A DNA stretch of 64,000 nucleotides from a virus (lineage: Duplodnaviria > Heunggongvirae > Uroviricota > Caudoviricetes). The DNA lies in the IMG/VR virus record IMGVR_UViG_3300028048_000122. The stretch is one strand, 5' to 3'. The translations under genes were made by a program, and so were the position numbers. This document shows positions 23,986 to 63,262 of the stretch, piece by piece (position 1 is the stretch's first letter; every line of letters starts with the position of its first letter). The notes under the pieces are model-generated. The model was not told the DNA's origin. It was given only the letters and a program-made list of their open reading frames with translations, and ran no database searches.

Positions 23986-23988
23986 ATG

Positions 23989-25362: not shown

Positions 25363-25947
25363 ATGTTTAACAGCATTCCAATGGTCATTGAACGGGAGGG
25401 AAATGGCGAGCGCGCCATGGATCTTGGTTCCCGGCTCTTAAAAGACCGTATTATTATGTGTTCTGGCCAGGTAAATACCGCCATGGCCGAAGTCATCAAG
25501 ATGGAACTTTACTATCTTGAAGCAGAAGACCCGACGGCAGATATTACCATGTATATCAATTCGCCGGGTGGCAGCGTAGTGGACGGCATGGCCATCTACG
25601 ATGCGATGCAATATATTAAGCCCGACGTATGTACCATCGTAAATGGTTTGGCGGCAAGTATGGGAAGTCTCCTGCTTATGGCCGGCGCCAAAGGTAAGCG
25701 TTTTGCCCTGCCTAACGCTGAAATCATGATTCATCAGCCCAGCGGCGGCTCCGAAGGAAAAGCTTCCGATATGGAAATCAGTTGGGAACATATGAAACGA
25801 ACTAAAGAAAAACTGCATAACCTGTACGTAAAGCATACGGGCCGCAGTTTGGAAGAAATTAAAGCAGCAATGGATCGCGACAATTGGCTTACTCCGCAGG
25901 AAGCGGTGGATTTTGGCCTGATTGACGCCATCCAATATAAGAGATAA
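25363..25947 (+). CDS. clpP: ATP-dependent Clp protease proteolytic subunit ClpP
   Basis: Catalytic Ser (GLAASMG), His (MIHQP), Asp context; full-length alignment to ClpP pattern. Confidence 0.85.
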   Translation: MFNSIPMVIEREGNGERAMDLGSRLLKDRIIMCSGQVNTAMAEVIKMELYYLEAEDPTADITMYINSPGGSVVDGMAIYDAMQYIKPDVCTIVNGLAASMGSLLLMAGAKGKRFALPNAEIMIHQPSGGSEGKASDMEISWEHMKRTKEKLHNLYVKHTGRSLEEIKAAMDRDNWLTPQEAVDFGLIDAIQYKR

Positions 25948-25964: not shown

Positions 25965-27248
25965 ATGGAAAAGAGCAAGCTTGACGTCGTATGTTCGTTT
26001 TGCGGCAAGAAAATCCCTAGCGACGTCATGGTAGCCCAGGGCATAGATGAAGATACGTTCATCTGCCAGCATTGCTTAATAGCCTTGGAAGAAACATTTC
26101 GGGCGGCAGACACCTTGATCGAAAACGAAGAGGAAGAGCATAAGAAAGATGATAAGAAGCATAAGAGACTTCCCAGGCCGTCGGAAATCAAAGCTCATCT
26201 TGACCAGTACATTATCGGTCAGGAATATGCCAAGAAGGTATTGTCCGTAGCGGTGTATAATCACTACAAGATGCTCGGCGTGAAATTCGGTAATAAGGCC
26301 GTCAATAAGGACGTAGAACTGGAAAAATCGAATGTTTTGCTTGCTGGTCCGAGCGGCTCGGGAAAGACGGCTATCTTAAAAGCTTTGGCTAAATTCCTGA
26401 AAGTCCCCTTCGTGATAGCCGATTCCACGGAATACACAAGCGCGGGATACGTAGGGAAGGATGTTGAATGCATTGCCCGCGATATGATCAGCGCTGCCAA
26501 CGGTGACATCAAGAAGGCTGAACGCGGTATCGTCTATATCGACGAAATCGATAAGACTTCCCGTAAGGGCGAAAACTTATCGACGACATCCGATCCCGGC
26601 CACGAAGGAACTCAGCAGGCGCTCTTAAAGCTTCTGGAAGGTACTATGCTCGACGTACCGATGGATGGCCGCCGATTAAATCCCGAAAGCCGTAATGTTC
26701 AGAAAATCAGCACGGAAAATATGCTGTTTATCGTAGGCGGTGCGTTTGAGGGAATCGAAAAGATTATCGCTAAACGCAAGCGTCAGGGCCAAAACACCAT
26801 GGGCATCGGCGCTAAACTGGTAGACCGTAAAAACGATAAGTATAATGACTTTATCGAAGACCTGGCTACCGAAGACCTTAAGAAGTTCGGCATGTTGCCT
26901 GAACTCTTAGGGCGCGTCCCCGTCATCGCTCCTCTTAAGGAATTGACGGAAGACCAGTTAGTACAGATTTTACATGAGCCAAAGAATGCTTTGGTTAAGC
27001 AGTATCAGGAACTGTTTATTCAGGACGGCATTCAGCTCGAAGTCACGGAAAACGCTATGAAGGCTATTGCTCGTAAAGCAATTAAGAGAAAAACTGGCGC
27101 CCGTGGACTTCGCGGCATCATGGAAAATATCCTGAACCCCGTCATGTTCTCCGCTCCTGACAAGGATATCGATTATGTCCTCGTTGACGCGGAAGATGAC
27201 GAAATCAAAATCAAAGGTAAAAAGAGAAAAGTTAAGGAGGCCGTTTAA
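25965..27248 (+). CDS. clpX: ATP-dependent Clp protease ATPase subunit ClpX
   Basis: N-terminal C4 zinc finger (CSFCGKK...CQHC), Walker A GPSGSGKT, sensor/arginine finger region, ClpP-binding loop. Confidence 0.85.
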   Translation: MEKSKLDVVCSFCGKKIPSDVMVAQGIDEDTFICQHCLIALEETFRAADTLIENEEEEHKKDDKKHKRLPRPSEIKAHLDQYIIGQEYAKKVLSVAVYNHYKMLGVKFGNKAVNKDVELEKSNVLLAGPSGSGKTAILKALAKFLKVPFVIADSTEYTSAGYVGKDVECIARDMISAANGDIKKAERGIVYIDEIDKTSRKGENLSTTSDPGHEGTQQALLKLLEGTMLDVPMDGRRLNPESRNVQKISTENMLFIVGGAFEGIEKIIAKRKRQGQNTMGIGAKLVDRKNDKYNDFIEDLATEDLKKFGMLPELLGRVPVIAPLKELTEDQLVQILHEPKNALVKQYQELFIQDGIQLEVTENAMKAIARKAIKRKTGARGLRGIMENILNPVMFSAPDKDIDYVLVDAEDDEIKIKGKKRKVKEAV

Positions 27249-39252: not shown

Positions 39253-39885
39253 GTGGACACGCTTAAGATTTTCAACGTAAAGTGGACATCGAAAAGCGCT
39301 GGCCCTTCTCTTGATAGTAACCGCCGGACAGAAATTTTTCTGGCCGGCTGCCGAAAAGCCAGAGAAGGACACGCTTGTCCCGGATGTTTTAATAAGGAGT
39401 TATGGAGTAAGGATGTCTATTACGGCTCCGATTCTCCAGCTGAAGCTTTTAAGAATATAAAAGCGCACGCTCCTAATAAATACATCACATTCGTAGGCGG
39501 CGAACCGTTGGATCAGGCAGAACCACTGTCTGAACTTTGCCGCCTGCTTCACGAAGATGGTTTTCATATCATCGTGATTACCCATTTTAAAGCACGGGAC
39601 ATTTTGTCCAGTGCTAGAGTTATCCCGTACATGGAAGTCTTAACCAATAACATAGACGTTATCATTGACGGCGAATATCGTGCCGATGACCGCATTTGGG
39701 ACGAAGAAAAAGCCGGCGACGGCCTGCATGACGTAATCGGATCCGGCAATCAGTGTGTAGTGGACTTAAAAGCCCGCCGTGAAGGGCATCCGGATTTCAT
39801 TACGTATGCCGGCAACCTTGAAGGACTTGCTATGAACGTAAATAACGATATGGTATACATACTTAAAGACGGAAAGGAATGGTAA
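39253..39885 (+). CDS. NrdG-like 4Fe-4S single-cluster (radical-SAM activase-like) protein
   Basis: FLAGC-x7-C-x2-C-FN...W and TFVGGEPLDQ resemble anaerobic RNR activase family; second family member in window (see 55039). Confidence 0.45.
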   Translation: MDTLKIFNVKWTSKSAGPSLDSNRRTEIFLAGCRKAREGHACPGCFNKELWSKDVYYGSDSPAEAFKNIKAHAPNKYITFVGGEPLDQAEPLSELCRLLHEDGFHIIVITHFKARDILSSARVIPYMEVLTNNIDVIIDGEYRADDRIWDEEKAGDGLHDVIGSGNQCVVDLKARREGHPDFITYAGNLEGLAMNVNNDMVYILKDGKEW

Positions 39886-49697: not shown

Positions 49698-50125
49698 AAA
49701 CTTGGACATCGCCTAAAGGCGACTACTTAACTCCTGGCGGAGATCCCTTGTATATGTGTCCCGTATGTGGCGAAGAAAGCAAAGAATCGTGGCACGTATA
49801 TGGAATAGAGTCGCCGGAAGCTAGAATGGACAAATGCCCGCATTGCGGTGAGCCATTAAGATATCCTGGAGGATGGATAACCGGCGCCGAAATGGAGCCA
49901 GATAAAGTATACAGAGTAACCAAAGGCAACACTGATGGCAGTGTATTCAAAGGCGATCTGCTTTATATTGACAAAAATGATGGCCGGTTAGTATGTAACA
50001 CTTGTGGATGGCTCGATAAAGAAGACCTTGCCCCAGCTATTATGGACTTTGAATGCGTGTTGGCAAAAGATTACGAAGTATACCGAGAACGCTGGAGTAT
50101 TGGGATAAGAAAAGTTGCCAGATAG
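49694..50125 (+). CDS. Zn-ribbon protein
   Basis: CPVCG...CPHCG...CNTCG; TAG stop. Confidence 0.5.
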   Translation: MKTWTSPKGDYLTPGGDPLYMCPVCGEESKESWHVYGIESPEARMDKCPHCGEPLRYPGGWITGAEMEPDKVYRVTKGNTDGSVFKGDLLYIDKNDGRLVCNTCGWLDKEDLAPAIMDFECVLAKDYEVYRERWSIGIRKVAR

Positions 50126-50136
50126 GGGGATTTGGT

Positions 50137-52053
50137 ATGACAAGAGAAGAACATCTGTCCGCCATCAGAAAGGCTGACACTGAATACTATGATTTAGACA
50201 ATCCTACATTGTCTGATGCAGAGTATGACGAACTTCGCCGTAGTTATATCGACCAGTACGGTGCCGAGGATTTGAACTATGTTCCTGGCGGTGTGGCAGA
50301 TGGTTTTGAAAAATTCCGGCACCCGACACCAGTCACCTCTTTGGGCAAATGGACTAAGGGCGTAGATGATGAAGCTGACCTGAAGAAGCAGATTGAAAAG
50401 CTGTGGCCGGTAGAGATACAGCCAAAGTATGATGGCCTCACGGTGGTGGCTTACCCTAATGCTGATGGCTCATGCCGTTTCGTTACCCGAGGTTTGGGCG
50501 GCAAAATTGGTGAAGTCCTGCCGAACTTTATCCCTGCGTATGAGGGGGCGGGAGTTAATAATAGCGATTATGCTATTAGGGGCGAAGTGTTCATTACCCC
50601 GGCAGATTTTGATACCCTTAACAGCGCATTGAAGCATTACGGTGAAGAACCGATGAAGAATATGCGTAATGCTGCAGCAGGTCTTTTGCGTCGCAAAGAA
50701 CGCAGTCCATATCTGCACCTGCTAAGCTATATCGTTTATGATCTGCCGGGCCAGGATATGACTCCTGCAGAAATGCGCGAGATTATTTCCGAACAGACTA
50801 AGTTTACGTTTACCGATGGCTTTAGCTTCGATACGGCTGAGCAGACCATTGAAGGTGTAGGGCAAATTTACAATGATATCAATAGCTTGCAGGTTTATCC
50901 GATTGACGGCATTGTTGTTAAGAGCTGCCAGAAAAACTCTGGCTATCGGTTCGGAAATACGGCTCACCATCCGCGTAATGCCGTGGCGATTAAACCCGGC
51001 CGAACTGTATTCACTACGGTGGTTCGCGATGTTATTTGGCAGATGGGGCGCTCTAAAGCTACGCCCGTAGCCATCGTAGACCCTGTAGAAATTGATGGCG
51101 CCACCGTAACCAAGGCGTCCTTGCATAATGCAGAGCAGATTAAAAAGCTAGGGCTTAAGATTGGTGCGAAGGTAACTATCTATAAAGCCAACGAAATTAT
51201 CCCGCAGATTGGTGAAGTGCTTGAACAGGGCGATAAGGACATTATTTTAGATGTATGTCCCGCATGTGGCGGCCCACTAAAAGAAGTCAATGGTCAGCAA
51301 TTCTGTACAAATCCTGACTGCACTGAACGTATCGCACAAGACATTGCGTTCTTGGGTCAGAAAGATGTACTGGATATTCCTGGCCTGTCTATTCAGACTG
51401 CTCGTAAGATTGTGGAGAAATATCCTAAGCTCATAGAGAATTATAAGCAATATGCTATTTTTGTTATGGAAGCATCGGAATTTACTGTTTTACCTGGGTT
51501 TGCACAGAAATCTGGAAGTAAGCTTTATAACACTATCCAGAAAACTATTGCGGCTACGGAGTTCTCACATTTTATCAAAGCGCTTTGTGTTCCTGGTATT
51601 GGTCAACATGTAGGCCAGAAATTACAGGAATACTTTGGCTCCGTAGACGATATCTTCAATACTATTTTTGTGACGAAAGACCGTGATGAACTGCTTTGTG
51701 TTGACGGCCTCGGCCCAATGACTGTAAGTGCTCTTCTTAGTGAACAGTTCAGCGATAATTGGGACAGACTGATAGATATTGGTTTTTGCCCGATTATCGA
51801 GAAGAAAAAAGAAGCTCCAGCTGGAGAGTTTGTGAATAAGGTGTTTGTATTGACAGGCAAGATGGAGCACCCACGCAGCTATTATGAGGAGCTTATTGCT
51901 AAGGCGGGCGCGAAGACTAGCTCTGGAGTAAGCAAGTCCACGGATTATCTGGTTATCGCAGATGTTAACAGTCAGAGTTCCAAGGCCAAGAAGGCTCGTG
52001 AATTGGGAACCAAACTGATTTCTCCCGAAGAGTTGGAGGAAATGCTGGAATGA
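50137..52053 (+). CDS. ligA: NAD-dependent DNA ligase LigA
   Basis: Ia domain (YYDLDNPTLSDAEYD), KxDG adenylation motif (KYDGLTVV), OB fold, C4 Zn finger (CPACGG...C..C), HhH, C-terminal BRCT. Confidence 0.85.
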   Translation: MTREEHLSAIRKADTEYYDLDNPTLSDAEYDELRRSYIDQYGAEDLNYVPGGVADGFEKFRHPTPVTSLGKWTKGVDDEADLKKQIEKLWPVEIQPKYDGLTVVAYPNADGSCRFVTRGLGGKIGEVLPNFIPAYEGAGVNNSDYAIRGEVFITPADFDTLNSALKHYGEEPMKNMRNAAAGLLRRKERSPYLHLLSYIVYDLPGQDMTPAEMREIISEQTKFTFTDGFSFDTAEQTIEGVGQIYNDINSLQVYPIDGIVVKSCQKNSGYRFGNTAHHPRNAVAIKPGRTVFTTVVRDVIWQMGRSKATPVAIVDPVEIDGATVTKASLHNAEQIKKLGLKIGAKVTIYKANEIIPQIGEVLEQGDKDIILDVCPACGGPLKEVNGQQFCTNPDCTERIAQDIAFLGQKDVLDIPGLSIQTARKIVEKYPKLIENYKQYAIFVMEASEFTVLPGFAQKSGSKLYNTIQKTIAATEFSHFIKALCVPGIGQHVGQKLQEYFGSVDDIFNTIFVTKDRDELLCVDGLGPMTVSALLSEQFSDNWDRLIDIGFCPIIEKKKEAPAGEFVNKVFVLTGKMEHPRSYYEELIAKAGAKTSSGVSKSTDYLVIADVNSQSSKAKKARELGTKLISPEELEEMLE

Positions 52054-52281
52054 TTAAGTCGTGGAAAACGCGCGCCAGGCTAGACATCTTAAAATTTAAG
52101 AAAAGAAAAGGTCCCTTGTGGGATTCAGCCGTAACCGCTATAGCAATAGGTGCAAGACAGGCGATAGCTCATAATCGGCCGCCTCTTTATGTTCATATAA
52201 AAACGAAACGCAGAAGAGCTTATATTGCTGCGCGGATATTGCTAACCGGTTATGCTCATGAAGTTTGGAAGGGATATTGAA

Positions 52282-52725
52282 ATGAGTGATATCATAGACG
52301 AGAAAAAAGACTCTTTTATACATATCAGATGTTGCGGGCTGGAAACTGATGGGTATATCGCAGATTATAAACAGAAAATAAAAAGATTGCCTCGTAATTT
52401 TCACGAGCAGAATCTGTTTGTCGATCATTGTAGAGCAATTGCTCTCTGTATTCCCAAGTGGATGAGCAAAAAAGGCCCGAGGCACAAAGAACTCTTTGTC
52501 TATCAGCAAAATCAAAACGGTTTATTGTTTGAAGTATTTGATGCTGGCAAAGAAAACTGTTCTGCTTATTTTCCGGAGATAGAATATTTTACTAACCCGT
52601 ATTCACCCAAAAGCTGGGAGTGGTATATCAAACGAGGTTTAAAGACAGGGGCTTTAAAAAGAATCAAAGGATTAAATCATACTTATTGGTACTGTGGTAA
52701 CGCTCAGGGGAAGCAAAAAGCTTAG
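52282..52725 (+). CDS. hypothetical protein
   Basis: ORF; GGAAGGGATATTGAAATG. Confidence 0.45.
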   Translation: MSDIIDEKKDSFIHIRCCGLETDGYIADYKQKIKRLPRNFHEQNLFVDHCRAIALCIPKWMSKKGPRHKELFVYQQNQNGLLFEVFDAGKENCSAYFPEIEYFTNPYSPKSWEWYIKRGLKTGALKRIKGLNHTYWYCGNAQGKQKA

Positions 52726-52741
52726 GAGGAAATACCAAAAA

Positions 52742-52939
52742 ATGACCGAGTGGAAATGGATTAGGTGGCCTCGAAGATGCGGAAAACTTAGCATACTTTT
52801 GGCAGAACTCAAAGAGTACGAATATCTTCGACAACTGCAGCCAACATTATTTACGCCGCGTAACTTCTACGCGACAGATATGAGGATACCGTTAGAACGC
52901 AAAGCGTTAACTGACTTGGCTTTTAAGAATTGGTGGTGA
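52742..52939 (+). CDS. hypothetical small protein
   Basis: TAGGAGG RBS. Confidence 0.4.
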   Translation: MTEWKWIRWPRRCGKLSILLAELKEYEYLRQLQPTLFTPRNFYATDMRIPLERKALTDLAFKNWW

Positions 52940-52946
52940 TACTGAA

Positions 52947-53705
52947 ATGAACTACTGGAATGCTAGACAACAGAATGCCGCCCGTGCACAGAGACGGACG
53001 GAAGAATTTGAAGCTAACTCTACTCCAGCCATGAGTCGTGCTTTGGCCAACACGGTTACGTATGGCGGCAAGAATAAAAAACCTGCGTATATACTGAATA
53101 CCAGCCCCTATGCGGATTTTGAAGTCGTACAGATGTCTACGACCGAAGCCATCTACGAGCTTGGTCATAATGATTGTATCGCGCTGAACTTCGCATCATA
53201 TAAGAATCCGGGTGGCGCTTTCTTGAAAGGTTCCTGCGCTCAGGAAGAATCGCTCTGCCACGAAAGCTGGCTATATAATATTCTGGCTCGGCAGACCGAC
53301 TATTATGACTGGAACAAGAAGCATCTGAACCGCGGGCTTTATCAAGACCGCGCTCTTTATACTCCTAACGTAGAGTTTGAACACGATGGCAAACGAGCCG
53401 TAGCTGATATCCTTACTTGCGCAGCGCCCAATCGTAGCATTATCGAGAAAGGATATACAAACTTTACTGAGGAAGAGAATAAGACGGCAATGATTGAGCG
53501 AATGGTTTTCATATCCCAGATTGTTTCTATGCATGCCCATAAAGATGTTCTCATTCTCGGCGCATGGGGATGTGGCGTATTCAAGCAAGACCCCAAATTT
53601 GTAGCAAGAATTATCCGCAATACGCCGTGGTATAATATCAATAAAGTTGTACTGGCGGTTATCGATAAGCCGACATATGAAATCTTTAAGAAGGTGTTTG
53701 CATGA
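52947..53705 (+). CDS. microbial PARG-like macrodomain protein (TIGR02452/DUF2263-type)
   Basis: NFASYKNPGGAFLKGSCAQEESLC matches the conserved PARG-like signature (AxxxPGGGxxxGxxAQEExLC). Confidence 0.55.
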   Translation: MNYWNARQQNAARAQRRTEEFEANSTPAMSRALANTVTYGGKNKKPAYILNTSPYADFEVVQMSTTEAIYELGHNDCIALNFASYKNPGGAFLKGSCAQEESLCHESWLYNILARQTDYYDWNKKHLNRGLYQDRALYTPNVEFEHDGKRAVADILTCAAPNRSIIEKGYTNFTEEENKTAMIERMVFISQIVSMHAHKDVLILGAWGCGVFKQDPKFVARIIRNTPWYNINKVVLAVIDKPTYEIFKKVFA

Positions 53706-54031
53706 CGGAACTTGAAAAACAGTTGGCTTATTTTCAAGGCCTAACAAAAAAATTGACTAGCAAAGATAAGCTGAAGGAGCTTAAAATTAAGCAATTGTCT
53801 AGAAATATTTTAGGCTGCCGCATCCGCTGTGATTATATGTATGATGTCTTTGATTCGACAGGCAAGACAGACGAAGCCGCCCGCTGTATGGTCGGCGTAT
53901 GCGGTACAGTCGAATTTATAGATGATGCTTGCCAGCTCCACGTAAAGTGGGATAACGGCAGTACACTGGCTTTGAATCCCGAATGCGATGAGTTTACTAT
54001 ACTGGAGGCCAGAGACGGTGAGAGTCGGTAA
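53702..54031 (+). CDS. hypothetical protein
   Basis: ORF overlapping upstream stop. Confidence 0.45.
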   Translation: MTELEKQLAYFQGLTKKLTSKDKLKELKIKQLSRNILGCRIRCDYMYDVFDSTGKTDEAARCMVGVCGTVEFIDDACQLHVKWDNGSTLALNPECDEFTILEARDGESR

Positions 54032-54239
54032 TACAATCATCAATCCAAAGCACGTATGCTACGCAGAGATAATTGAGAATAATGACTGGCTTGGTATTCA
54101 AGACGGCTACATTATTCAATGTAAACTGGACGATGGCAGGAAAATTAAAATAAAGGATTCAGACGGTAGAGGCTTTTCTCGCCTCGAAGCCGATGACGCT
54201 TTGGATGAAATTAACGACGCATTGGAGGCTGACGAATGA
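54018..54239 (+). CDS. hypothetical protein
   Basis: GTG start after GGAGGCC (uncertain). Confidence 0.35.
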   Translation: MRVGNTIINPKHVCYAEIIENNDWLGIQDGYIIQCKLDDGRKIKIKDSDGRGFSRLEADDALDEINDALEADE

Positions 54240-54679
54240 TGAAGTATTTATTTCTCGACATTGATGGCGTAATGAATTCTGCCGCTGACCGGTTTTCTAT
54301 AAAGCTCGTAAACAATGCTCCGTTTGAACGGCTCAAGAAAATTATTGACACTACCGGAGCTAAGATTATCCTGTCTTCTTCATGGCGACATGGATATGAG
54401 CACGGCACTTGCGATTTGCTGAAGCAGCGTTTGGCTGAATATGGTCTATCCATAGAAGACACAACGCCTATTAACAACAATAGGCGTGGAGAACAAATCC
54501 GGGAATGGCTTACGACACATGACTACGATGAAAATGTCGATACCTTTGTCATACTGGACGATGAAGACTTTGATATCTTGGCTCTCTATCCAGAGCAAAT
54601 GGTTAAGACAGATGAAATGATAGGACTGCAGGATTATCAAGTCTGGAAATGTATCGACAAATTAAATCGAAAAAAGTAG
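54236..54679 (+). CDS. HAD-superfamily phosphatase-like protein
   Basis: Motif I FLDIDGVMN, motif II SSSW, later DD; size of PNK-phosphatase/deoxyribonucleotidase type. Confidence 0.5.
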   Translation: MMKYLFLDIDGVMNSAADRFSIKLVNNAPFERLKKIIDTTGAKIILSSSWRHGYEHGTCDLLKQRLAEYGLSIEDTTPINNNRRGEQIREWLTTHDYDENVDTFVILDDEDFDILALYPEQMVKTDEMIGLQDYQVWKCIDKLNRKK

Positions 54680-54704
54680 TAAGAGATTTTTGGAGGAAGA
54701 ATGG

Positions 54705-55046
54705 ATGGCTATCAAACAGATTGCGAAGTGCGTCTACGAAGCGGATGAAGATACCACTCGGGAAGAATTAAAGGAAGCCGGTTGGATTTCGTCCGTCAAA
54801 CTTTCCCGCATGAAAGGTATATGGGCCGTCGCGTTATTGAAGCGCGATATCAATGGGCTTACGGCGGCAGGTTTGGAAATTCTCAGTTTTCATGGCGGCT
54901 ACAGTAAAAAGTATTATTATCACGAAGAGCAGGTTGTTCCTGTTCTAAAAGAGATGCAAAAGTTTCTCGATGAACATTGTGTGCGTTATGCGTGTGAAGC
55001 GCAGATGTGGCATGTCAGAGAATTTTGGAGGCAATATAATGGCTAA
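54705..55046 (+). CDS. hypothetical protein
   Basis: GGAGGAAG RBS. Confidence 0.45.
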   Translation: MAIKQIAKCVYEADEDTTREELKEAGWISSVKLSRMKGIWAVALLKRDINGLTAAGLEILSFHGGYSKKYYYHEEQVVPVLKEMQKFLDEHCVRYACEAQMWHVREFWRQYNG

Positions 55047-55536
55047 GATAAGAATCGCCGGTATTCAAGACGATTCCGTAGTAGATGGCGAGGGCATCCG
55101 TATGACCGTATTTAGCCAAGGCTGTCCTCATCATTGTTGTGGCTGTCACAACCCTGCTACTTGGGATAGTGAGGGCGGCTATGTAACTACTACAGAAGAA
55201 ATTCTGGAACAATATAAGAATAATCCACTTCTGGACGGCATGACGTTTAGTGGCGGCGAACCATTCATGCAGCCGATGATGTTTTTTGACCTGGCCAAAG
55301 AGGTTCACAAAATGGGTGGAAACATCTGGTGCTATACCGGCTACACATTAGAAGAGCTTCTGAAGTACACATATGGCCCGCACAGGATGCTGCTTGAGCA
55401 GATAGATGTACTGGTAGATGGTGAGTATAAAGAGACATTAAGAGATCTTACTCTCCAGTTCCGTGGCAGCAGTAATCAGCGTATCTGGGAACGTCATGGT
55501 GATATGTGGCAACTCTGGAAGCAGAACGTAGCCTGA
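55039..55536 (+). CDS. nrdG: anaerobic ribonucleoside-triphosphate reductase activating protein NrdG
   Basis: GCPHHCCGCHNPATW cluster motif, FSGGEPF; GGAGG RBS. Confidence 0.8.
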   Translation: MAKIRIAGIQDDSVVDGEGIRMTVFSQGCPHHCCGCHNPATWDSEGGYVTTTEEILEQYKNNPLLDGMTFSGGEPFMQPMMFFDLAKEVHKMGGNIWCYTGYTLEELLKYTYGPHRMLLEQIDVLVDGEYKETLRDLTLQFRGSSNQRIWERHGDMWQLWKQNVA

Positions 55537-55585
55537 TAGAAGCGCCCGTTTTCTCGGTAATATAAATGTATGTAAAACATTTATA

Positions 55586-56221
55586 TTGCTCAGAAAGGGT
55601 GTTTTAATTTTGTCACATGTAGTAAGTAAGTACGAACTGCAGCATGTCACTGTAGATGAACTTCGTCAGATGGCAGCAGACTGCAGGGAAAGCATCTGGG
55701 AACAGGCAGAATCCGCCGGTCGTGAACCCAAAATCTACCTGCACTGGACGGCTGGCCATTATGGTCAGTTTTGGGACGATTATCATGTGCAGATTGACGA
55801 AGATGGCGAAATCTATGTGTACGGAGAACTGGATGAAATCCTGTCACACACTTGGCGCCGCAATACCGGCGCAATCGGCGTAACGCTTCTTTGCGGTTAT
55901 CAGGCCAACACTTCCGATCTTGGCCCGGAAGCTCCGACAGCTAAGCAGATTGAGTCCATGGCTCTTGCCGTAGAAGCATTGGCTGATGGCCTGTGGCTTA
56001 CCATCTCAAAAGAGTATGTCGCAACCCATGGGGAAGCGGCAGACAACGAATGCAACGACTGGTGCCATGAAGATTATGGTCCTAAGTCAACCTGCGAACG
56101 CTGGGACTTGGAATACCTGCAGACGGACGAAAGCCCCGTATTTAATCCGTGGGCAGAAGACGGCAGCCGTGGCGGCGATGTAATTCGCGGCAAGGCAAAC
56201 TGGTATCGTAACCAGAGATAA
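55586..56221 (+). CDS. N-acetylmuramoyl-L-alanine amidase (Amidase_2/PGRP fold), endolysin candidate
   Basis: IYLHWTAGHYGQ...YHVQIDEDGEIYVYG...NTGAIGVTLLCG...THGEAADNECNDWCHED (Zn-ligand His/His/Cys pattern); start uncertain (TTG 55586/55609). Confidence 0.6.
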   Translation: MLRKGVLILSHVVSKYELQHVTVDELRQMAADCRESIWEQAESAGREPKIYLHWTAGHYGQFWDDYHVQIDEDGEIYVYGELDEILSHTWRRNTGAIGVTLLCGYQANTSDLGPEAPTAKQIESMALAVEALADGLWLTISKEYVATHGEAADNECNDWCHEDYGPKSTCERWDLEYLQTDESPVFNPWAEDGSRGGDVIRGKANWYRNQR

Positions 56222-56238
56222 TTGAATTATTATAAGAA

Positions 56239-56270
56239 GCCTCTCCTCAAAAGGGAGGGGCTTTGTTGTA
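56239..56270 (+). terminator. intrinsic terminator
   Basis: GCCTCTCC-TCAAAAG-GGAGGGGC then TTTGTTGT. Confidence 0.6.
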
Positions 56271-56277
56271 CGTAAAA

Positions 56278-56322
56278 TGGCTAAGAGTTTTCTTGACAAC
56301 TCTTAGCCATTTGTGGTAACCT
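56278..56322 (+). promoter_or_regulatory. promoter TTGACA(-35)/TGnTAACCT with 12-bp perfect inverted-repeat operator
   Basis: TGGCTAAGAGTT-ttcTTGACA-AACTCTTAGCCA; -35 sits between the arms. Confidence 0.5.
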
Positions 56323-56352
56323 TTAAGATGTAAAAATAAAGGAGAGATCCCA

Positions 56353-57012
56353 ATGGATGTTATAGATTTTGACGCTCTTAACGCCGAAATGGACGCGACT
56401 ATCGCTGCGGCGCAGACGCCCGATTTAACGGAGTCTTTACCGACGAAAGAAGATATTCTCGACGATTTTCTGGCTGACATTGAGCAACAGCAGGTAGAAG
56501 ACCTTAAGCTCGACACCATCGAGACTCACGGCGTATCTTCTGAACGGCAGGCTGACTATCTTATCGGCCGCTACAAACGTCTCAAAGAATCCGTGCGAGA
56601 TATCGATGAATTGGCCGACAGCCGCATTAAGGATTATATGGATAAGGTCAACCGTTGGCGCGATTCAGAGCTTAAGAGCCTTACGGCGCAGATGGATTAT
56701 ATCCAGAACGTATTGGAAAGCTACGCTAAAGCCAATATTACGGGTAAGAAGAAATCCATTAAGATGATTGAAGGCACGTTAAGCCTCAGCAAACAGCAGC
56801 CAAAGATCGATTACGACGAGAAGAAACTCAGGGACTTCTTGGCTACGATTAAAGAAGGAGAACAGTATCTTGAACCGCAAGAACCCAAGCTTTTGTGGGG
56901 TGAGTTCAAGAAAGCTACCAAAGTCGGCGAAGATAATCTGCTTCGTTTTGGCGAGAAGACTGTCCCGGGCGTAGTCGTGACCATTCGACCGGACAAATTC
57001 GCTATTAAATAA
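56353..57012 (+). CDS. hypothetical protein (219 aa), coiled-coil
   Basis: AAAGGAGAG RBS. Confidence 0.5.
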   Translation: MDVIDFDALNAEMDATIAAAQTPDLTESLPTKEDILDDFLADIEQQQVEDLKLDTIETHGVSSERQADYLIGRYKRLKESVRDIDELADSRIKDYMDKVNRWRDSELKSLTAQMDYIQNVLESYAKANITGKKKSIKMIEGTLSLSKQQPKIDYDEKKLRDFLATIKEGEQYLEPQEPKLLWGEFKKATKVGEDNLLRFGEKTVPGVVVTIRPDKFAIK

Positions 57013-58223
57013 TGGCCCGTCTGACTGACGGTTTCATCCAGAGAGTTAAAGAAGCAACAGATCTTCTGGAACTGGTGGGAGAATACGTAGAACTTACTTC
57101 CGCCGGTTCCAATCTCTGGATGGCCAATTGTCCGCATCCCGATCATGATGATCCGACGCCATCCTTCCGCGTATGTCACAACGCAGATGGTAGTTGGTCA
57201 TGGTACTGCGGCGGATGTCATATGGGCCCGAAGAATCTTCACTCTAAAGCATTGAGGAATGTCGGATCGGACTGTTTCGCGTTTATTCAATGGATGAGTG
57301 AATATAAGGGCAGCAAACATGTTATCGGCTGGCGCGAATCCGTAGAAATATTGGCTAAACGGGCCGGTATCCCTATGGAAGAGGATAAATTCGATAAGAC
57401 TTATCAGATGCTGTATACGGTAGCCCGAAAACGTCATAAGAATCTCATGGATTCAGACGAGGCTTTAGATTACATTCATGGGCGAGGCATAACCGACAAC
57501 ACTCTCGACGAATGGCAGATAGGTCTTATGACCGTCCATGAATTTGGGCAAGATGTAAAGAGACTTTCTTTCCCCTTGTTCTCCCGCCATAATCGCGTGA
57601 TAGGAGAATCCGCCAGGGCTATTGAGTACGTTAAGGACGAATCCAAGTTTCCTAAGTACCGTAATTCCGCTAACTCACGTATATTTAATAAGAGCAGCTA
57701 CTTGTATGGACTGCATAGGTATACTTCAGACGTACCTGAACTCCGTATTACGGAAGGAGCTATGGACGTCATTACCGCTAGTCAGTTCGGCGCCTTAAAT
57801 GTTGTATGTTCCCTGGGAACCGCTTTTACCAAGGAACATGTCATGGAAATCAAGACGCTCAAGACGACCCCGTGTTTCTGTTTGGACGGTGACGCTGCCG
57901 GACAAAAAGGAATAAAGCGGGCGGTAGGCATGCTGGCAGAAGCCGGCATCTACGCTAAAGTATGTATCCTGCCGGAAGGAAAAGATCTGGCCGACCTTGC
58001 CTTGGAGCTCAAGGAAGATATAGAAGAATATATCGAGCTTCATTCCATGATGTACTGGGAATATCTCTTAGAAGAACCTCTTAAAGTATTTAACGCTCAG
58101 TTAAATGCCGTAAGAGCCAAGATACTTCCCATGATCATGCAGGCAAGCAAAGGCACTACTACGCCTGAAGACAGGATACTAATGCGAAATTTTGTTAAGG
58201 AAAGGACTGGAATAGAATTTTGA
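57012..58223 (+). CDS. dnaG: DnaG-type DNA primase
   Basis: CHC2 zinc finger (CPHPDHDDPTPSFRV...WYCGGCH), Toprim (EGAMDVITA...LDGDAAGQKG). Confidence 0.8.
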   Translation: MARLTDGFIQRVKEATDLLELVGEYVELTSAGSNLWMANCPHPDHDDPTPSFRVCHNADGSWSWYCGGCHMGPKNLHSKALRNVGSDCFAFIQWMSEYKGSKHVIGWRESVEILAKRAGIPMEEDKFDKTYQMLYTVARKRHKNLMDSDEALDYIHGRGITDNTLDEWQIGLMTVHEFGQDVKRLSFPLFSRHNRVIGESARAIEYVKDESKFPKYRNSANSRIFNKSSYLYGLHRYTSDVPELRITEGAMDVITASQFGALNVVCSLGTAFTKEHVMEIKTLKTTPCFCLDGDAAGQKGIKRAVGMLAEAGIYAKVCILPEGKDLADLALELKEDIEEYIELHSMMYWEYLLEEPLKVFNAQLNAVRAKILPMIMQASKGTTTPEDRILMRNFVKERTGIEF

Positions 58224-58657
58224 ATTCTTTTACTAGCGAAGCCTGCAGCACATGCCGACTACTTCCGATTTGCGCCGTATGCCCGATTATCACGGCTAAT
58301 AAGGCGCTCGATGCCGCCATGATTGGCTGCCGATATTATGAAGAAGGCGAAAATTCCATGATGCCGTTCGGCCAGAACGTAGAAGAAGCGCCGTCCATTT
58401 CGGTAGACGAACGCCTGAAAATCGCTGAACAGATCAGGGAAGAAAGTATCGCCGCGGAAGAGGAGAAACAGAAGGAAGTGTTCGGCCCGGCAGAAGGCGT
58501 AGAATGTTCCGCCTGCCATAAGGATAACGTTCAACTTATCCGTTGCGACAGTTGCGGAAAAGCCTGCTGCGCAGATTGCCTAACCGATACTCTCGATGGC
58601 AAGACACTTTGTCCGGACTGCTATGATTCAGAGGATACCCCGTCTTTTTCTTTGTAA
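58220..58657 (+). CDS. Cys-rich putative metal-binding protein
   Basis: 12 Cys in CxxC-type spacing; start uncertain. Confidence 0.4.
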   Translation: MNSFTSEACSTCRLLPICAVCPIITANKALDAAMIGCRYYEEGENSMMPFGQNVEEAPSISVDERLKIAEQIREESIAAEEEKQKEVFGPAEGVECSACHKDNVQLIRCDSCGKACCADCLTDTLDGKTLCPDCYDSEDTPSFSL

Positions 58658-58670
58658 AGGGGAATAGACA

Positions 58671-59024
58671 ATGACTTTAAATGATTTTTTCGCCCGCAAT
58701 AATATATGCGGGTTCACTCCGGAAGAACTGCGTGATATCTTATCTTTACGCAGCGACTTTCGCGTAGATGTATCGCCGCCCGCGGGAGTTATCTTGCGCG
58801 GCGTTACCATAAAGCCTTTAGGCTGCGTCGCCGATTATTTTACCGATGATGAAAACGGTAAGAAAATCAAGACAAATAAAAGTTCTTCCGCTACGGGAGC
58901 GTGTTATTATATCCAAAAAGAACTTGGCTGTAATCATCACGCCACCCCGGGAGAATGCCGTACATGCTTTTTGTCCTGCCTAGCTTTACTGGAAGCTGGA
59001 GAGGTATATAAAAGGAAAAGATAA
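58671..59024 (+). CDS. hypothetical protein
   Basis: GGGGAATAGACAATG RBS. Confidence 0.45.
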   Translation: MTLNDFFARNNICGFTPEELRDILSLRSDFRVDVSPPAGVILRGVTIKPLGCVADYFTDDENGKKIKTNKSSSATGACYYIQKELGCNHHATPGECRTCFLSCLALLEAGEVYKRKR

Positions 59025-59056
59025 ATCATAACCAAATTTTAAGGAGGAAGATATCT

Positions 59057-59332
59057 ATGAGTAAAACTGATATCATTAACATCGTAGCAGAGGAAGCAGG
59101 CATCGCAAAGAAAGACGCCGAGAAGGCAGTTACCGCGGTACTGAACGCCATCGTCAAGGCAACGGCTGAAGGCGATAAGGTAGCACTGGTCGGCTTCGGT
59201 ACGTTTGAAGCTAAGGAACGCGCCGCACGCATGGGACATAACCCTAAGACTGGCGAACAGATTCAGATTCCCGCTTCCAAGAGCGTGTCGTTCAAGGCAG
59301 GCAAGCCGTTTAAAGAGGCTGTTAACGCTTGA
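59057..59332 (+). CDS. HU-family histone-like DNA-binding protein
   Basis: Full-length HU/IHF pattern (MSKTDIINIVAEEAGIAKKDAEKAV...GFGTFEAKERAARMGHNPKTGEQIQIPASKSVSFKAGKPFKEAV). Confidence 0.8.
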   Translation: MSKTDIINIVAEEAGIAKKDAEKAVTAVLNAIVKATAEGDKVALVGFGTFEAKERAARMGHNPKTGEQIQIPASKSVSFKAGKPFKEAVNA

Positions 59333-59964
59333 TCGATCCGGCCTTAAAAGCGACACTGCAGAAAAAATATGGAACCGAGCAGGTTTACACCATCCCGCTT
59401 GCTTACGCGACATCAGTTTCCGATAAGTTTGCGCCCGAAAAACCGCGAAATGCTTATGGCGGTTCCTTCGTCCTTCGCAGTGACGCTGAGTACAATGAGG
59501 CTTTAATTCAGATTATCCCGTACATCCTGGTAGTCAATAAGGCTCATAACAAGATGTATGTAACCAAGAGAATCGCCGGGGAAGAACGTTTGCGTGATTC
59601 TCTGGCTCTTGGTTGCGGCGGGCATATCAACCCCTGTGATTTCGGCGCTGACTTTATTGGCAATGCCGCCCATAGGGAAATGAATGAAGAACTCAATATC
59701 CGTCTGGCCAAAGATACCGACCTTGTTACGATAGGCACCGTAAGAGATTTAAATTCGGCGACGAAAGAACATCTCGGCATCGTCATGATCGCTACGGCTG
59801 GAACGGTAAGCGTCAAAGAGAAGGATACTTTAAAAGGATATTGGATGACTTACGATGAGTTGGTCGCTAACTACGCCAACTTCGAGAGCTGGGCCAAGCA
59901 TATATTAGATTATATGTTTGAAAATGGCGGCTCCATCGAAAGCATCGTTGAAGGGGGCAAATGA
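59329..59964 (+). CDS. divergent Nudix-like hydrolase (tentative)
   Basis: GGHINPCDF...AAHREMNEELNI approximates Nudix box Gx5Ex7REUxEExGU; start uncertain. Confidence 0.35.
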   Translation: MIDPALKATLQKKYGTEQVYTIPLAYATSVSDKFAPEKPRNAYGGSFVLRSDAEYNEALIQIIPYILVVNKAHNKMYVTKRIAGEERLRDSLALGCGGHINPCDFGADFIGNAAHREMNEELNIRLAKDTDLVTIGTVRDLNSATKEHLGIVMIATAGTVSVKEKDTLKGYWMTYDELVANYANFESWAKHILDYMFENGGSIESIVEGGK

Positions 59965-61335
59965 ATGGAAGAACTTCGTATCGTCGTCAAGAGGAATGGC
60001 GACAAGGTTCCATATCAGACAAAGAAAATTTACGCGGCAATCGCCGGCGCCAATAAAGATTCCCGCGGAGAAATGTCTGCTCATGCCATTAGCAACGCGG
60101 TAATGCAGACAGACGTTAAGCTTCAGGGGAAGAGAGAAATCTCCGTGGAGCATATCCAGGATATGGTCGAAGAAACACTTATGGACAATAAGTATTTTAA
60201 GACGGCCAAGCAGTTCATTATCTACCGCGATCTTCACAATAAACGTCGGGAAGCTAATAAGAAGCTGATGGCATCGTACAGCGACCTCCTGTTTACCGAC
60301 GCAGAAGACATGGATTTAAAGCGTGATAATGCTAACATTAACACGGACGCCCCTATGGGCATCATGCTGAAACTGGGGACGGAAGGCGCCAAGTCATGGG
60401 CTTTGTCTTATGGCTTGCCGGAAAAATTCGTTAAGGCGCATAAAGAACATGCGATACATTATCATGACCTTGATTTCAGCTTTATCACTCTTAACTGTTT
60501 GCAGCAGGACTTGGGCAAAACCCTTAAGAATGGTTTTAATACCGGTCATGGTTTTTTGCGTGAACCGAACTCTATTCGTGCCGCAGCTTCATTGGCATGC
60601 ATCGCCATTCAGAGTTCTCAGAACGATTGTTTTGGAGGCCAGTCTATTAACGCCCTGGATTACGCTCTGGCTCCTTACGTAGAGAAGAGCTTTAAGAAAG
60701 CTCTTAAAAAAGTGCTTTTGAGAGCAGAGGATTGGTTGGGACGTGATACATATCATCTTATTCCTCAGTCAATCAAGGAAGATATCATTGATAAACTGAT
60801 TCAGGGAAACAATATTCGCTACGGCTTAAAAGGCGAAGAGTTAGAAGCTGCGGCAAAAGCAATTCATGCCGAGATATTCGGGAAAAAAGATATAGAGCAA
60901 TATCAAAGTTTTCGAGAGGCTAAAAAACTTTATCACATGGCTTGTCAAGACGTAGAAGAAGAAACCAAGCAGGCTATGGAAGCTATGATTCATAACTTCA
61001 ACAGTTTACATTCGCGCGCCGGATCTCAGGTCCCCTTCAGTTCTATCAATTTTGGTATGAACACTACCCCTGAAGGACGCTTGGTTATCGCTAAAACGTT
61101 GGATGCTATCGACGCCGGTCTTGGTCATGGCGAAACGCCGATATTCCCTATCTCGGTATTCACCTTAAAAGCCGGGGTTAATTACAATCCTGGAGATCCC
61201 AATTATGACTTATTTCAGCGGGCATGCGAAGTAAGCGCTAAGCGCTTGTATCCTAATTTCACTAATTTGGATGCGCCATATAATCTCAAGTACTATAAGC
61301 CCGACGATTACAACTCTTTCTTCGCATGCATGGGT
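59965..61335 (+). CDS. nrdD: anaerobic ribonucleoside-triphosphate reductase NrdD, exon 1
   Basis: N-terminal ATP-cone, class III RNR core; reading frame stops at TAA immediately after inferred 5' splice site. Confidence 0.75.
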
Positions 61336-62410
61336 TAACTGAAAAAGTTACACGATTTTCTACAGCCCATGTAAAACTCCTTAAATTGCTGGAAACCTAA
61401 ACAATATTTGTCAGCATCCCATAGTGACAAATCTATGGGTAATAAATTTGACGAAAAATATATTGCATGGCAATCAGCAGCCAAGCTTTAAGGAGTTCGT
61501 CAAATTGCATAAAGAAAACGGAAAATATTTTGTGGATTGCTCTTGTTGTAACAACGAATTTGAAGTAGGAAAAAATACATATTTTAAAAAGAAAGAACAC
61601 ATATGTCCTAAATGCCGCGTTAAAAACCAAAAAATGCCATTATATCCGTCGGAATATAGTCGGATTTTGATTTTGGTAACATGCCAAGAATGCGGCAAGG
61701 AATTTGCTATGAAAAAAGAGAATGTAGATAGCAGATTCTTAAAATATGGCAAGCATTTGTGCCCTTCATGTTCGAAAAAAGGCGACAAAAACCCATTCGC
61801 TGGGAAAAATTTTTCAGAAGATCAGCGAAGCAAGCTCTCCAAGATAAGAGCTGCATATTATAATGATGCAGAACTTGGAGAGCAACGGCGGCAAGAAGTA
61901 TCTCGAAAGACAACAGGAGAAAATAATCCAATGTATAAAGGCGCTGCTTTGAAAAGTGACTATACATGGAGAAATAAAGCCTTTCGAGAAAAGGTACTTA
62001 AACGAGATAACTATACTTGTCACAAATGTCACAAAAGGAAACAAGACAAAGAATTAAAAGCTCATCACAAAAATAGTTGCAACTGGGACATTAAAGGTAG
62101 ACTTGATATTGATAATGGCGCAACTCTTTGCGATGAATGTCACAAATTATTTCATCGTCTTTATGGCTACGGCGATAATACCGTAGAGCAATTTGAAGAA
62201 TTCCTTAAAGAAGGTTCAGAGACTATCGAAATTGCTGAAGAAGCAAAAGTAGAGTAGGCCGCAAGTGCGGTCCAAAAAGGGAGTACAATAAAAATAGTAT
62301 ATTTATTGTAATGATATAGTCCGACACCTGTAGAAATACAGGTCACATGCGGAAACGGTATGTGAAAAAACTGAAAGTGTAGAACAAGAACTATGGACAA
62401 CGTTAACGGG
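61336..62410 (+). mobile_element. group I self-splicing intron in nrdD carrying an HNH homing endonuclease ORF
   Basis: Exon-1 end CATGGGT pairs with intron GCCCATG at 61365-61371 (P1 with U-G at the splice site). The intron ends in G at 62410. The downstream frame continues NrdD (GSRGNFSFATINLP...CGF glycyl-radical region). The insert is AT-rich. Confidence 0.6.
61424..62257 (+). CDS. HNH homing endonuclease (intron-encoded)
   Basis: Several Zn-ribbon CxxC pairs; HNH core TCHKCHKRKQDKELKAHHKNSCNWDIKGRLDIDNGATLCDECHKLFH. Confidence 0.75.
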   Translation: MTNLWVINLTKNILHGNQQPSFKEFVKLHKENGKYFVDCSCCNNEFEVGKNTYFKKKEHICPKCRVKNQKMPLYPSEYSRILILVTCQECGKEFAMKKENVDSRFLKYGKHLCPSCSKKGDKNPFAGKNFSEDQRSKLSKIRAAYYNDAELGEQRRQEVSRKTTGENNPMYKGAALKSDYTWRNKAFREKVLKRDNYTCHKCHKRKQDKELKAHHKNSCNWDIKGRLDIDNGATLCDECHKLFHRLYGYGDNTVEQFEEFLKEGSETIEIAEEAKVE

Positions 62411-63262
62411 CCGTCCCAAAGCGGCTCTCGTGGCAATTTCTCGTTTGCGACGATAAATCTTCCCATGGTAGCTCTGGACGCTAAGGGCGATATCAATAAG
62501 TTCTTTGAATTATTCGATGAACGTATCCTGTTAGCCAAGGAATACTTGGAATATCGTTATAACATTATCGCTCATAAACAGGTGAAAAATTTCCCGTTTT
62601 TAATGGGCGAAGGGCTTTGGCTCGACAGTGAAAAATTGGGACCGGAGGATGAAATCGGGGAGGTATTGAAGCATGCGTCTATTTCGATTGGCTATGTCGG
62701 CCTTGCGGAGTGTCTTGTTGCTCTTACCGGTGCTCATCACGGAGTATCGGAAGATGCGCAAAAGCTCGGGCTCAAAATAATTGGTCATCTCAGAAACATG
62801 ACGGACAAATTCACGGAAGAAACTCATATGAATTGGTCAACCTTCGCTACTCCAGCCGAGTCATTCGCCGGCGTTGCGTGCCGCGCATGTAAGAAGAAAT
62901 ACGGCCAGATTAAAGGAGTAACTGATCGTGAATATTTCACGAACGGAAACCATGTTCCCGTATATTATCCCATCAAGGCTATTGATAAGATTCGTATTGA
63001 GGCGCCATACCATGCACTGGCTAACGCCGGAAACATTTCGTATATTGAGATGGATGGCGACCCTACTAAGAATGTGAAAGCGTTCGAGAAAATTGTACGG
63101 GCCATGCATGACGCGAATATGAGTTATTTTTCTATCAACCATGCTGTAGATCGCGACCCCGTATGTGGGTTCACGGGCATCATCGAAAACGAATGTCCGC
63201 ACTGCCATCGTCACGAAGAAACTGTTATTAACAGCATCAAGAATGTAAAGAGGGTTCAATAA
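62411..63262 (+). CDS. nrdD: NrdD exon 2 (glycyl-radical and Zn-ribbon C-terminus)
   Basis: GSRGNFSFATINLP (class III RNR signature), DPVCGFTG glycyl-radical motif, CPHCH C-terminal Zn site. Confidence 0.7.
   Translation, partial: PSQSGSRGNFSFATINLPMVALDAKGDINKFFELFDERILLAKEYLEYRYNIIAHKQVKNFPFLMGEGLWLDSEKLGPEDEIGEVLKHASISIGYVGLAECLVALTGAHHGVSEDAQKLGLKIIGHLRNMTDKFTEETHMNWSTFATPAESFAGVACRACKKKYGQIKGVTDREYFTNGNHVPVYYPIKAIDKIRIEAPYHALANAGNISYIEMDGDPTKNVKAFEKIVRAMHDANMSYFSINHAVDRDPVCGFTGIIENECPHCHRHEETVINSIKNVKRVQ

Follow-up and report, generated by a model that had tools for sequence, protein, structure and literature searches.

A bacterial-type PARG gene downstream of an NAD-dependent DNA ligase in a phage genome, and its possible role in removing ADP-ribose from nucleic acid

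In a stretch of 64,000 nucleotides of a Caudoviricetes virus (IMG/VR virus record IMGVR_UViG_3300028048_000122), hereafter the window, we analyzed a gene predicted to encode a bacterial-type poly(ADP-ribose) glycohydrolase (PARG). The genes of the window form a block on one strand and serve phage replication and nucleotide metabolism; they include topoisomerase II subunits, UvsX, helicases, single-stranded DNA-binding proteins, NAD-ligase, primase, HU, NrdD, and NrdG. Around the gene of interest, the order is LigA – three small open reading frames (ORFs) – PARG – DUF4314 – orf83 – HAD – x – NrdG, where x is an intervening ORF. The enzyme is a phage-borne member of a known family in an informative context, and not a new kind of system. 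We ask here what it may act upon.

The PARG gene and its neighbours

The gene and its two functional loops are placed as follows:

52947..53705 (+): predicted bacterial-type PARG (TIGR02452 / DUF2263 / PF10021), a macrodomain hydrolase of 252 aa, pI 8.5
53208..53258 (+): PARG catalytic loop, P88-G-G-A-F-L-K-G-S-C-A-Q-E100-E101-S-L-C104 (residues 88-104), aligned with the QEE of the D. radiodurans enzyme (DrPARG)
53559..53582 (+): PARG diphosphate-binding loop, G205-A-W-G-C-G-V-F212, the same as LGAWGCGVF of DrPARG in the HMMER alignment

The family assignment is supported by profile searches as well as by solved enzymes. The ORF matches TIGR02452 (E=1.4e-53, 182.1 bits for a cut-off of 50) and PF10021 PARG_cat_microb (94.8 bits for a cut-off of 23.5), and among solved PARGs it retrieves those of D. 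radiodurans (E=1e-21) and T. curvata (E=2e-19) by sequence, with an identity to the solved enzymes of around 27%. The profile of the canonical, eukaryote-type PARG (PF05028) stays below its gathering cut-off (24.1 bits for 26.3) and covers residues 166-218 only; judged by these scores, canonical PARG is a distant relative and not the same family. An independent gene call on a public 48-kb contig gave the identical protein with the same gene boundaries. The protein is full length, and the catalytic and the diphosphate loops are both intact.

The published signature of the family is GGG-X6-8-QEE with a catalytic pair of glutamates (PMC8120803). The window protein reads G89-G90-A91-x7-Q99-E100-E101, i.e., it carries the signature with an alanine in place of the third textbook glycine, a position that is variable across the gut-phage PARG clade in our alignment of 26 diverse homologues. 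In the same alignment, G89, G90, Q99, E100, and E101 are invariant, as is the diphosphate loop at seven of its eight positions (G205, A206, G208, C209, G210, V211, and F212). From the conserved motif, E101 is the probable counterpart of E115 of the T. curvata enzyme, the residue mutated in PDB 3sij. A preliminary description of this DNA had given the signature as PGGxxxGxxAQEExLC; it is indeed present at residues 88-104, and its spacing is PGG-x4-G-x2-AQEE-x-LC, one x having been miscounted.

The structural model agrees with the profiles. An AlphaFold (AF2) model built from the 26-homologue alignment has a predicted local distance difference test score (pLDDT) of 90.2, and its predicted fold is that of a macrodomain extended at the N-terminus by helices (residues 3-23 and 27-34). 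A Foldseek search with this model retrieved the T. curvata PARGs 3sig/3sih/3sij with template modelling (TM) scores of 0.80-0.81 (E ~1e-16) and the D. radiodurans 5zd* entries at TM ~0.75, with generic macrodomains being far weaker. The check by profile and fold had been chosen beforehand as the one that could refute the earlier proposal of a PARG-like macrodomain at this position, and both sides of it upheld the proposal. No PHROGs family matches the protein, and no PADLOC model matches it, or any other gene of the cluster, at E<=0.01. Hence, at this threshold the protein does not resemble a DarG-type protein; with neither a PADLOC match nor a transferase in its neighbourhood, it does not belong with the DarG-type antitoxins.

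The other genes considered are the following:

50137..52053 (+): NAD+-dependent DNA ligase LigA, with PF01653, PF03120, BRCT, and HhH domains; the ORF opens at 50053
52050..52939 (+): three short ORFs (52050-52280, 52252/52282-52725, and 52694/52742-52939), a variable spacer between ligase and PARG, with no family match
53702..54031 (+): DUF4314 protein, 109 aa (PF14192, 52.1 bits); its start overlaps the PARG stop (ATGA)
53988..54239 (+): orf83, a conserved small acidic ORF of 83 aa with an alternative start at 54018 and no family match
54236..54679 (+): HAD_SAK_2 phosphatase, 147 aa (PF18143, 90.2 bits for a cut-off of 27.5, profile positions 1-139 of 139)
59329..59964 (+): TM1382-like Nudix-fold protein, listed for context only (PF00293, 27.1 bits for a cut-off of 21.1; phrog_8902, E=1.5e-29)

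The likely start of LigA is 50137, the equivalent of the position at which the independent gene call begins, and its stop overlaps the start of the first spacer ORF as ATGA. The three spacer ORFs have no match in Pfam, NCBIfam, PHROG, or PADLOC. A literature search found no paper mentioning DUF4314. Its gene overlaps orf83 by 44 nt, and orf83 in turn overlaps the HAD gene as ATGA; orf83 is 88% identical in one related locus (L005) and is also called in another (L167). In the HAD protein, the residues of motifs I-IV (DxD, S/T, K/R, DD), i.e., D8, D10, S47, S48, R84, D108, and D109, are invariant in 25 sequences. Its AF2 model has a pLDDT of 91.4, and the nearest PDB folds are the 3'-phosphatase domain of T4 PNKP and Pnkp1, both weak matches (E ~0.01, TM ~0.5); Pnkp1 belongs to the Pnkp1/Rnl/Hen1 RNA-repair complex. 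The PARG gene is tightly packed with this HAD gene, whose product weakly resembles polynucleotide phosphatases, and lies downstream of an NAD-ligase. The preliminary description was right about the phosphatase, which it had placed two genes downstream of PARG; it comes third, after two short conserved ORFs.

The Nudix-like assignment at 59329, at first tentative, is now supported by the PF00293 score and by PDB 3e57 (TM1382, an uncharacterised T. maritima protein; E=1e-13). The ORF has an RE-x2-EE core at residue 116, and the upstream G-x5-E part of the consensus GX5EX7REUXEEXGU is irregular by eye. In the window and its relatives, the gene sits in a conserved HU–Nudix–NrdD block. We considered it as a part of the PARG unit and rejected this, as in one relative (L086) the slot between ligase and HAD lacks PARG and is 8.5 kb away from the HU–Nudix–NrdD block; the Nudix gene is probably outside the unit. 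The profile and structure matches of the PARG, HAD, Nudix-like, and NAD-ligase genes are not attributable to chance.

Distribution and gene neighbourhoods of phage PARGs

A scan of IMG/VR with the single PARG sequence found nothing, and an alignment-based scan found relatives in at least 318 loci, the best 80 of which are mostly on contigs of ~90-550 kb. Among 50,697 deposited phage records, only 19 have a homologue: fifteen Lak megaphages, two records of Bacillus phage G, one 642-kb uncultured phage, and one 23-kb contig. In phage G (L085, 60412-72954), the PARG-type gene gp114 carries no functional annotation, and a separate 'Appr-1-p processing' macrodomain gene, gp122, lies 3.4 kb downstream of it. 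A profile search of 1.84 billion cluster representatives gave 10,123 members of the family (clusters at 50% identity). The closest cellular PARGs come from metagenome-assembled genomes of rumen and gut Lachnospiraceae, Oscillospiraceae, and Erysipelotrichaceae (39-45% identity), followed by Streptomyces and Lentzea (33-38%). With its nearest cellular relatives this distant, the gene is not a recent capture from a host.

To study the neighbourhoods, we called and clustered the ORFs of 84 related loci and of the window, and grouped the PARGs in 24 lineages at 60% identity. Recurrent neighbour families were annotated with Pfam and extended with hidden Markov models (HMMs). In nine of the 24 lineages (37%), PARG has a ligase within 7 kb. 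Seven of the nine have an RNA ligase (PF09414) and three an NAD-ligase, lineage 7 having both; in a fourth NAD-ligase case the distance is 9.3 kb. A rough estimate of the chance that a ligase falls within ±7 kb of a random gene, for a 200-kb genome with one to three ligases, is ~7-20%. The other recurrent neighbours were:

Calcineurin-type phosphoesterases: directly adjacent to PARG in two lineages and within 1.5 kb in three more
DUF2828/DUF7788: seven lineages
CCA-adding enzyme: four lineages
RlaP-like Polβ nucleotidyltransferase: four lineages
HAD_SAK_2: two lineages (of 24)
YAcAr: two lineages

Some arrangements are compact. One locus reads MPE – x – PARG – RNA ligase – CCA-adding enzyme – LigA, with the RNA ligase directly adjacent (L015), and another MazG – PARG – RlaP – x – HD (L170). 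Two loci have SbcD – PARG – … – SbcC (L031:8467-12834 and L172:6624-13049), where the SbcD-like nuclease is of the Mre11 and the SbcC-like nuclease of the Rad50 type, and in L057 the PARG gene overlaps that of a PTH2 peptidyl-tRNA hydrolase. YAcAr adjoins PARG in L005 and L069, the latter match being weak (21 bits for a 28-bit cut-off). We found no ADP-ribosyltransferase, PARP, KptA, or sirtuin among window ORFs of at least 120 aa, nor beside PARG in the loci with precomputed Pfam annotation; this absence covers the window and those annotated loci, as no annotated protein was close enough to map the IMG/VR lineages. The HMMs derived from phage neighbours matched almost nothing in 80 bacterial PARG loci, so that they do not allow the association with RNA repair to be assessed in bacteria.

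Among the best 150 family representatives, we scanned ten unusually long proteins for fusions. This revealed a NADAR+PARG fusion on a 303-kb phage-like contig (P0311, L173:6001-7341), a fusion of PARG with YAcAr(SLOG) (P0271, L174:2195-3385), and a tandem double PARG (P0241). The first suggests a single protein covering several nucleic-acid linkages. The second fits the pattern of Iyer et al., read there as the making and breaking of ADP-ribose-derived signals.

The relatives of the window differ between the ligase and the HAD gene. LigA is upstream of PARG in the window, L001, L004, and L005, and in the relatives DUF4314 comes after the HAD gene, unlike in the window. In L004 (PARG 64% identical), the LigA stop overlaps the PARG start with no spacer, and a reverse transcriptase (RVT_1, 91 bits; L004:3769-5043) lies just 3' of PARG. 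In L001 (83% identical), a type IV-like CRISPR-Cas locus is found exactly between LigA and PARG, and there is no HAD gene. This locus of a 254-kb relative (L001:2310-9800) has weak or faint matches to Csf1, Csf3, and Cas6, an 800-aa helicase, and about 28 degenerate repeats of ~28 nt each at 60-nt spacing (8036-9800). L005 (70% identical) reads PARG – x – YAcAr – x – x – HAD – DUF4314 – orf83, and L086 reads LigA – small ORFs including a Lar-like protein – YAcAr – x – HAD – DUF4314, with PARG absent. Since the contents of the slot differ among these four loci and the window, PARG is an optional cassette; the region that holds it is hypervariable, with the ligase at one boundary and the HAD cassette at the other. 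The slot also collects conflict-type genes (Lar-like, reverse transcriptase, CRISPR-Cas), as expected of an arms-race region. The preliminary description had joined the PARG, HAD, Nudix, and ligase genes in one ADP-ribose pathway. The four assignments stand, that of the Nudix-like gene at the level of the fold; the pathway is only partly supported, as the Nudix gene is in its separate block, the HAD gene is near PARG in only two of 24 lineages, and PARG itself is optional.

Possible substrates and roles

Proteins with DUF2263 were first shown to be glycohydrolases of poly-ADP-ribose (PAR) (PMC8120803; PMC5966428), and in vitro activity in removing PAR is documented for those of T. curvata, H. 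aurantiacus, D. radiodurans, and C. difficile CD160 (PMC8120803; PMC5966428; PDB entry titles). Recent work extended their substrates to nucleic acid. SCO0909 and DRB0099 were the sole bacterial hydrolases tested that reversed the ADP-ribosylation of RNA 2'-OH by RhsP2, and they protected E. coli from this toxin (PMC11833690). The bond that joins ADP-ribose to a ribose 2'-OH is chemically identical to the one between the units of PAR. In the same study, the highest activity on 5'-phospho-ADP-ribosylated RNA was that of a bacterial PARG, the substrate panel indicated that PARG-type enzymes are specific for ribose-OH and phosphate linkages, and the authors likened PARG to aprataxin as an end-deblocking enzyme (PMC11833690).

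Together with the recurrent linkage of phage PARGs to ligases and end-processing genes, this biochemistry makes the de-ADP-ribosylation of nucleic acid our best reading. We infer that the phage PARG frees the 2'-OH of RNA or the terminal phosphates of RNA/DNA from ADP-ribose, that this is coupled to ligation, and that it probably serves counter-defence, and give this reading a probability of about 0.45. The macrodomain would bind one ADP-ribose unit through the GAWGCGVF diphosphate loop, and E100/E101 would promote hydrolysis at the distal ribose C1''. ADP-ribose would then be freed from the ribose 2'-OH, in the linkage found inside PAR, or from a phosphate at an RNA or DNA end, unblocking ADP-ribosylated phage nucleic acid in the infected cell. 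The source of the modification might be ADP-ribosyltransferase toxins or defence systems of the host; alternatively, off-pathway chemistry dependent on NAD, e.g., 5'-phosphate capping of the Tpt1/KptA type, might introduce it. Sealing of the strand could then fall to the NAD-dependent ligase nearby, with the HAD_SAK_2 phosphatase trimming leftover terminal phosphates, a role that would be analogous to that of aprataxin in clearing 5'-AMP ends. The earlier suggestion of ADP-ribose removal with a possible counter-defence role is thus kept as far as nucleic acid is concerned (PMC11833690; ligase linkage), and given up for DarT as the target.

Several points weigh against this reading. The ligase linkage (37% for a chance expectation of 7-20%) is suggestive and not decisive, being inflated by gene modules, and may just reflect the clustering of nucleic-acid genes in phages; about half of the 24 lineages have no repair-type neighbour at all. 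Ligase, PARG, and HAD are not an obligate unit, since L086 keeps the ligase and the HAD gene without PARG. The family members assayed so far all degrade PAR too, and the PARG–YAcAr fusion and YAcAr neighbourhoods point to soluble ADP-ribose derivatives instead. Finally, no host ADP-ribosyltransferase targeting nucleic acid is known here, and the host itself is only deduced.

The alternative that survives best, itself rather unlikely, is that PARG processes soluble ADP-ribose derivatives. Small molecules derived from ADP-ribose, either immune signals of the host such as Thoeris 2'cADPR/3'cADPR or phage products of the SLOG/YAcAr type, would be destroyed or toggled, and HAD and Nudix would degrade the released ADP-ribose or its phosphates. 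The existence of the fusion P0271 fits this, as does YAcAr beside PARG in L005 and, weakly, L069, and within the PARG-less slot of L086; besides, gcADPR is closed by a ribose–ribose O-glycosidic bond of the same chemical type as the one cut by PARG (bioRxiv 10.1101/2022.05.07.491051). However, the window has no YAcAr gene, our literature search found no report of gcADPR cleavage by a PARG-type enzyme, and the contexts with ligase, RNA ligase, and SbcCD would be left unexplained. The ADP-ribose bound by macrodomains is also extended, a pose that a small cyclic molecule may be unable to take. A more specific version, which we find very doubtful, is that jumbo-phage PARGs are enzymatic anti-signalling factors that cut 2'cADPR/3'cADPR or related ADP-ribose signals, sometimes with a YAcAr/SLOG ligand-binding partner; if true, they would be the first anti-Thoeris mechanism of the hydrolase rather than the sponge type.

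It is distinctly unlikely that the enzyme acts in a classical way on PAR or on ADP-ribosylated proteins, i.e., on the products of host or phage PARP-like enzymes or on modified proteins. PARG-type enzymes are inefficient on protein-proximal mono-ADP-ribose, which counts against such a role. The PAR removal in vitro by the four DUF2263 proteins cited above speaks for it, and so do the PARP-like enzymes of a few jumbo phages, as described in PMC7824862. Against it, neither PARP nor another ADP-ribosyltransferase turned up in the window and annotated loci as searched above, and PARPs are uncommon in bacteria (28 sequences from 27 species, PMC5966428) in comparison with ~10,000 PARG clusters at 50% identity.

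The reversal of DarT-type base ADP-ribosylation of phage DNA, which the preliminary description had put forward with DarTG as an example, found no support, and we consider it highly improbable. Phages do carry orphan ADP-ribosyl hydrolases against DarTG, namely NADAR (PMC11825919) and a DarG2-like protein (PMC13309987), and the PARG gene lies in a replication module. However, PADLOC gave no match at the threshold used above, and the known reversers of thymidine- and guanine-linked ADP-ribose are macrodomains of the TARG1/DarG type and NADAR (PMC11833690, PMC11825919), unlike PARG-type enzymes with their specificity for ribose-OH and phosphate linkages; the NADAR–PARG fusion further suggests that the two domains cover different linkages. 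That PARG is a mere passenger, a host gene recently acquired in a hyperplastic region and with no phage-specific role, is hardly credible, as the variable slot, its absence in L086, and a GC content slightly below the flanks (0.427 in the 52-54 kb bin for 0.458 and 0.451) must be set against the spread over the at least 318 IMG/VR loci described above, the retention of every catalytic residue in 26 diverse homologues, and the distance of the nearest cellular relatives (39-45% identity).

Homologues of bacterial PARG are abundant (~10,000 clusters at 50% identity), and their physiological role is still largely unknown; the erasure of ADP-ribose from RNA 2'-OH and phosphate ends, and the protection from an RNA-targeting toxin, were shown only in 2025 (PMC11833690). 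The phage clade, with hundreds of IMG/VR members concentrated in very large genomes, offers a natural setting to ask if gut anaerobes commonly use the ADP-ribosylation of nucleic acid as a weapon against phages, and whether phages respond with a repair route of de-blocking and ligation. In our literature search, no paper turned up in which a PARG-type enzyme is presented as a counter-defence of phages. If the nucleic-acid reading is true, PARG-type enzymes would be a third class of hydrolases among phage counter-defences, after NADAR and DarG-like macrodomains, and phage PARGs would be markers for host defences still undescribed.

Phage setting and comparison with known systems

A megablast search of window positions 50,000-60,000 against the 50,697 phage records gave no match, hence there is no close isolate phage at the DNA level. 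Close relatives of the PARG (83% identical) and HAD (90% identical) genes are carried by contigs of 250-254 kb, which suggests a phage of ~250 kb. The closest cellular PARGs, the anaerobic genes NrdD/NrdG, and a ROOL RNA suggest in turn a jumbo phage of anaerobic gut or rumen Firmicutes. The ROOL RNA is full length (12020-12603, +; RF03087, 215 bits for a gathering score of 99) and lies directly upstream of a tRNA cluster, the window having about 12-13 tRNA genes (12637-13555, 15244-15325, and 19715-21647, +). One of these (20304-20380, +; labelled 'Pyl' by ARAGORN, 33 bits with the Rfam tRNA model) carries the anticodon CUA, which would make it an amber suppressor. TAG terminates only six of the 57 large ORFs of the window, and the TAG of the HAD gene is directly followed by TAA. 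Recoding of this stop codon in late genes is possible.

Other features of the window concern its remaining genes. At 23986-25338, 25363-25947, 25965-27248, and 21877-22758 (+), there are genes for an AIPR-domain protein, for ClpP, for an AAA+ ATPase next to it, and for an SPFH/Band-7 protein; the name AIPR stands for abortive-infection phage resistance. There are two radical-SAM activase-like genes (Fer4_12; 39253-39885 and 54970-55536, +), of which only the second is in an NrdG-like position. The nrdD gene consists of two ORFs (59965-61338 and 62393-63262, +) around 1 kb apart. The insert holds an ORF of the HNH type (61424-62257) as well as a match to a group I intron that stays below threshold (62142-62343, 36.7 bits for a gathering score of 50, E=2e-7). 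This split resembles the intron-interrupted nrdD of other phages, and in L001 and L086 nrdD is in three pieces. The scan for promoters and terminators did no better than shuffled sequences (21 for 18.1 and 11 for 10.2); a terminator-like hairpin is found at 56240-56258.

Among characterised proteins, the closest are the bacterial-type PARGs of T. curvata (3sig), D. radiodurans (DRB0099, 5zda), and S. coelicolor (SCO0909). The phage protein shares both loops, the fold (TM 0.75-0.81), and a size of ~250 aa with them; it differs by its identity of ~27%, the alanine for the third glycine, and its place in a jumbo phage rather than a bacterial chromosome, and is described here from sequence and model. 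At the level of gene order, the closest system is the operon DRB0100–DRB0099–DRB0098 of D. radiodurans (ligase – PARG – HD phosphatase/polynucleotide kinase; PMC11833690), with which the window shares an upstream ligase and a nearby phosphatase on one strand. Unlike in this operon, the ligase is an NAD-dependent LigA and not an RNA/DNA ligase, the phosphatase is of the HAD and not the HD type, and no polynucleotide kinase domain turned up. Three ORFs separate ligase and PARG, two separate PARG and HAD, and the components are separable in relatives. The window locus is not a ligase–PARG–PNKP operon of this type, and the resemblance is functional only.

The setting also recalls the 'NAD+-ADPr network' of Macro, NADAR, SLOG, and Nudix domains in jumbo phages, for which RNA repair or degradation of ADP-ribose signals was predicted (Iyer et al. 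2021, PMC7824862; 2022, PMC9503650). The window has an NAD-ligase, a Nudix-like protein, and a 'Swiss-army-knife' HAD, and its relatives have YAcAr. The passages of these surveys that were consulted do not describe the ligase, SbcCD, and RlaP neighbourhoods of PARG; the term 'PARG' is absent from both papers, and 'DUF2263' from PMC9503650.

The last comparison is with the orphan hydrolases of phages, i.e., NADAR, which reverses base-linked ADP-ribosylation of nucleic acid and is used by T4-like phages against DarTG1 (PMC11833690, PMC11825919), and the DarG2-like protein of chimalliviruses, which acts against DarTG (PMC13309987). The phage PARG differs from these in belonging to another hydrolase family, in the bonds that it is expected to cut (ribose-OH or phosphate rather than base), and in being a candidate counter-defence. 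Like them, it stands alone with no adjacent transferase, among replication genes, and the NADAR–PARG fusion ties it to the counter-defence enzymes of the NADAR type.

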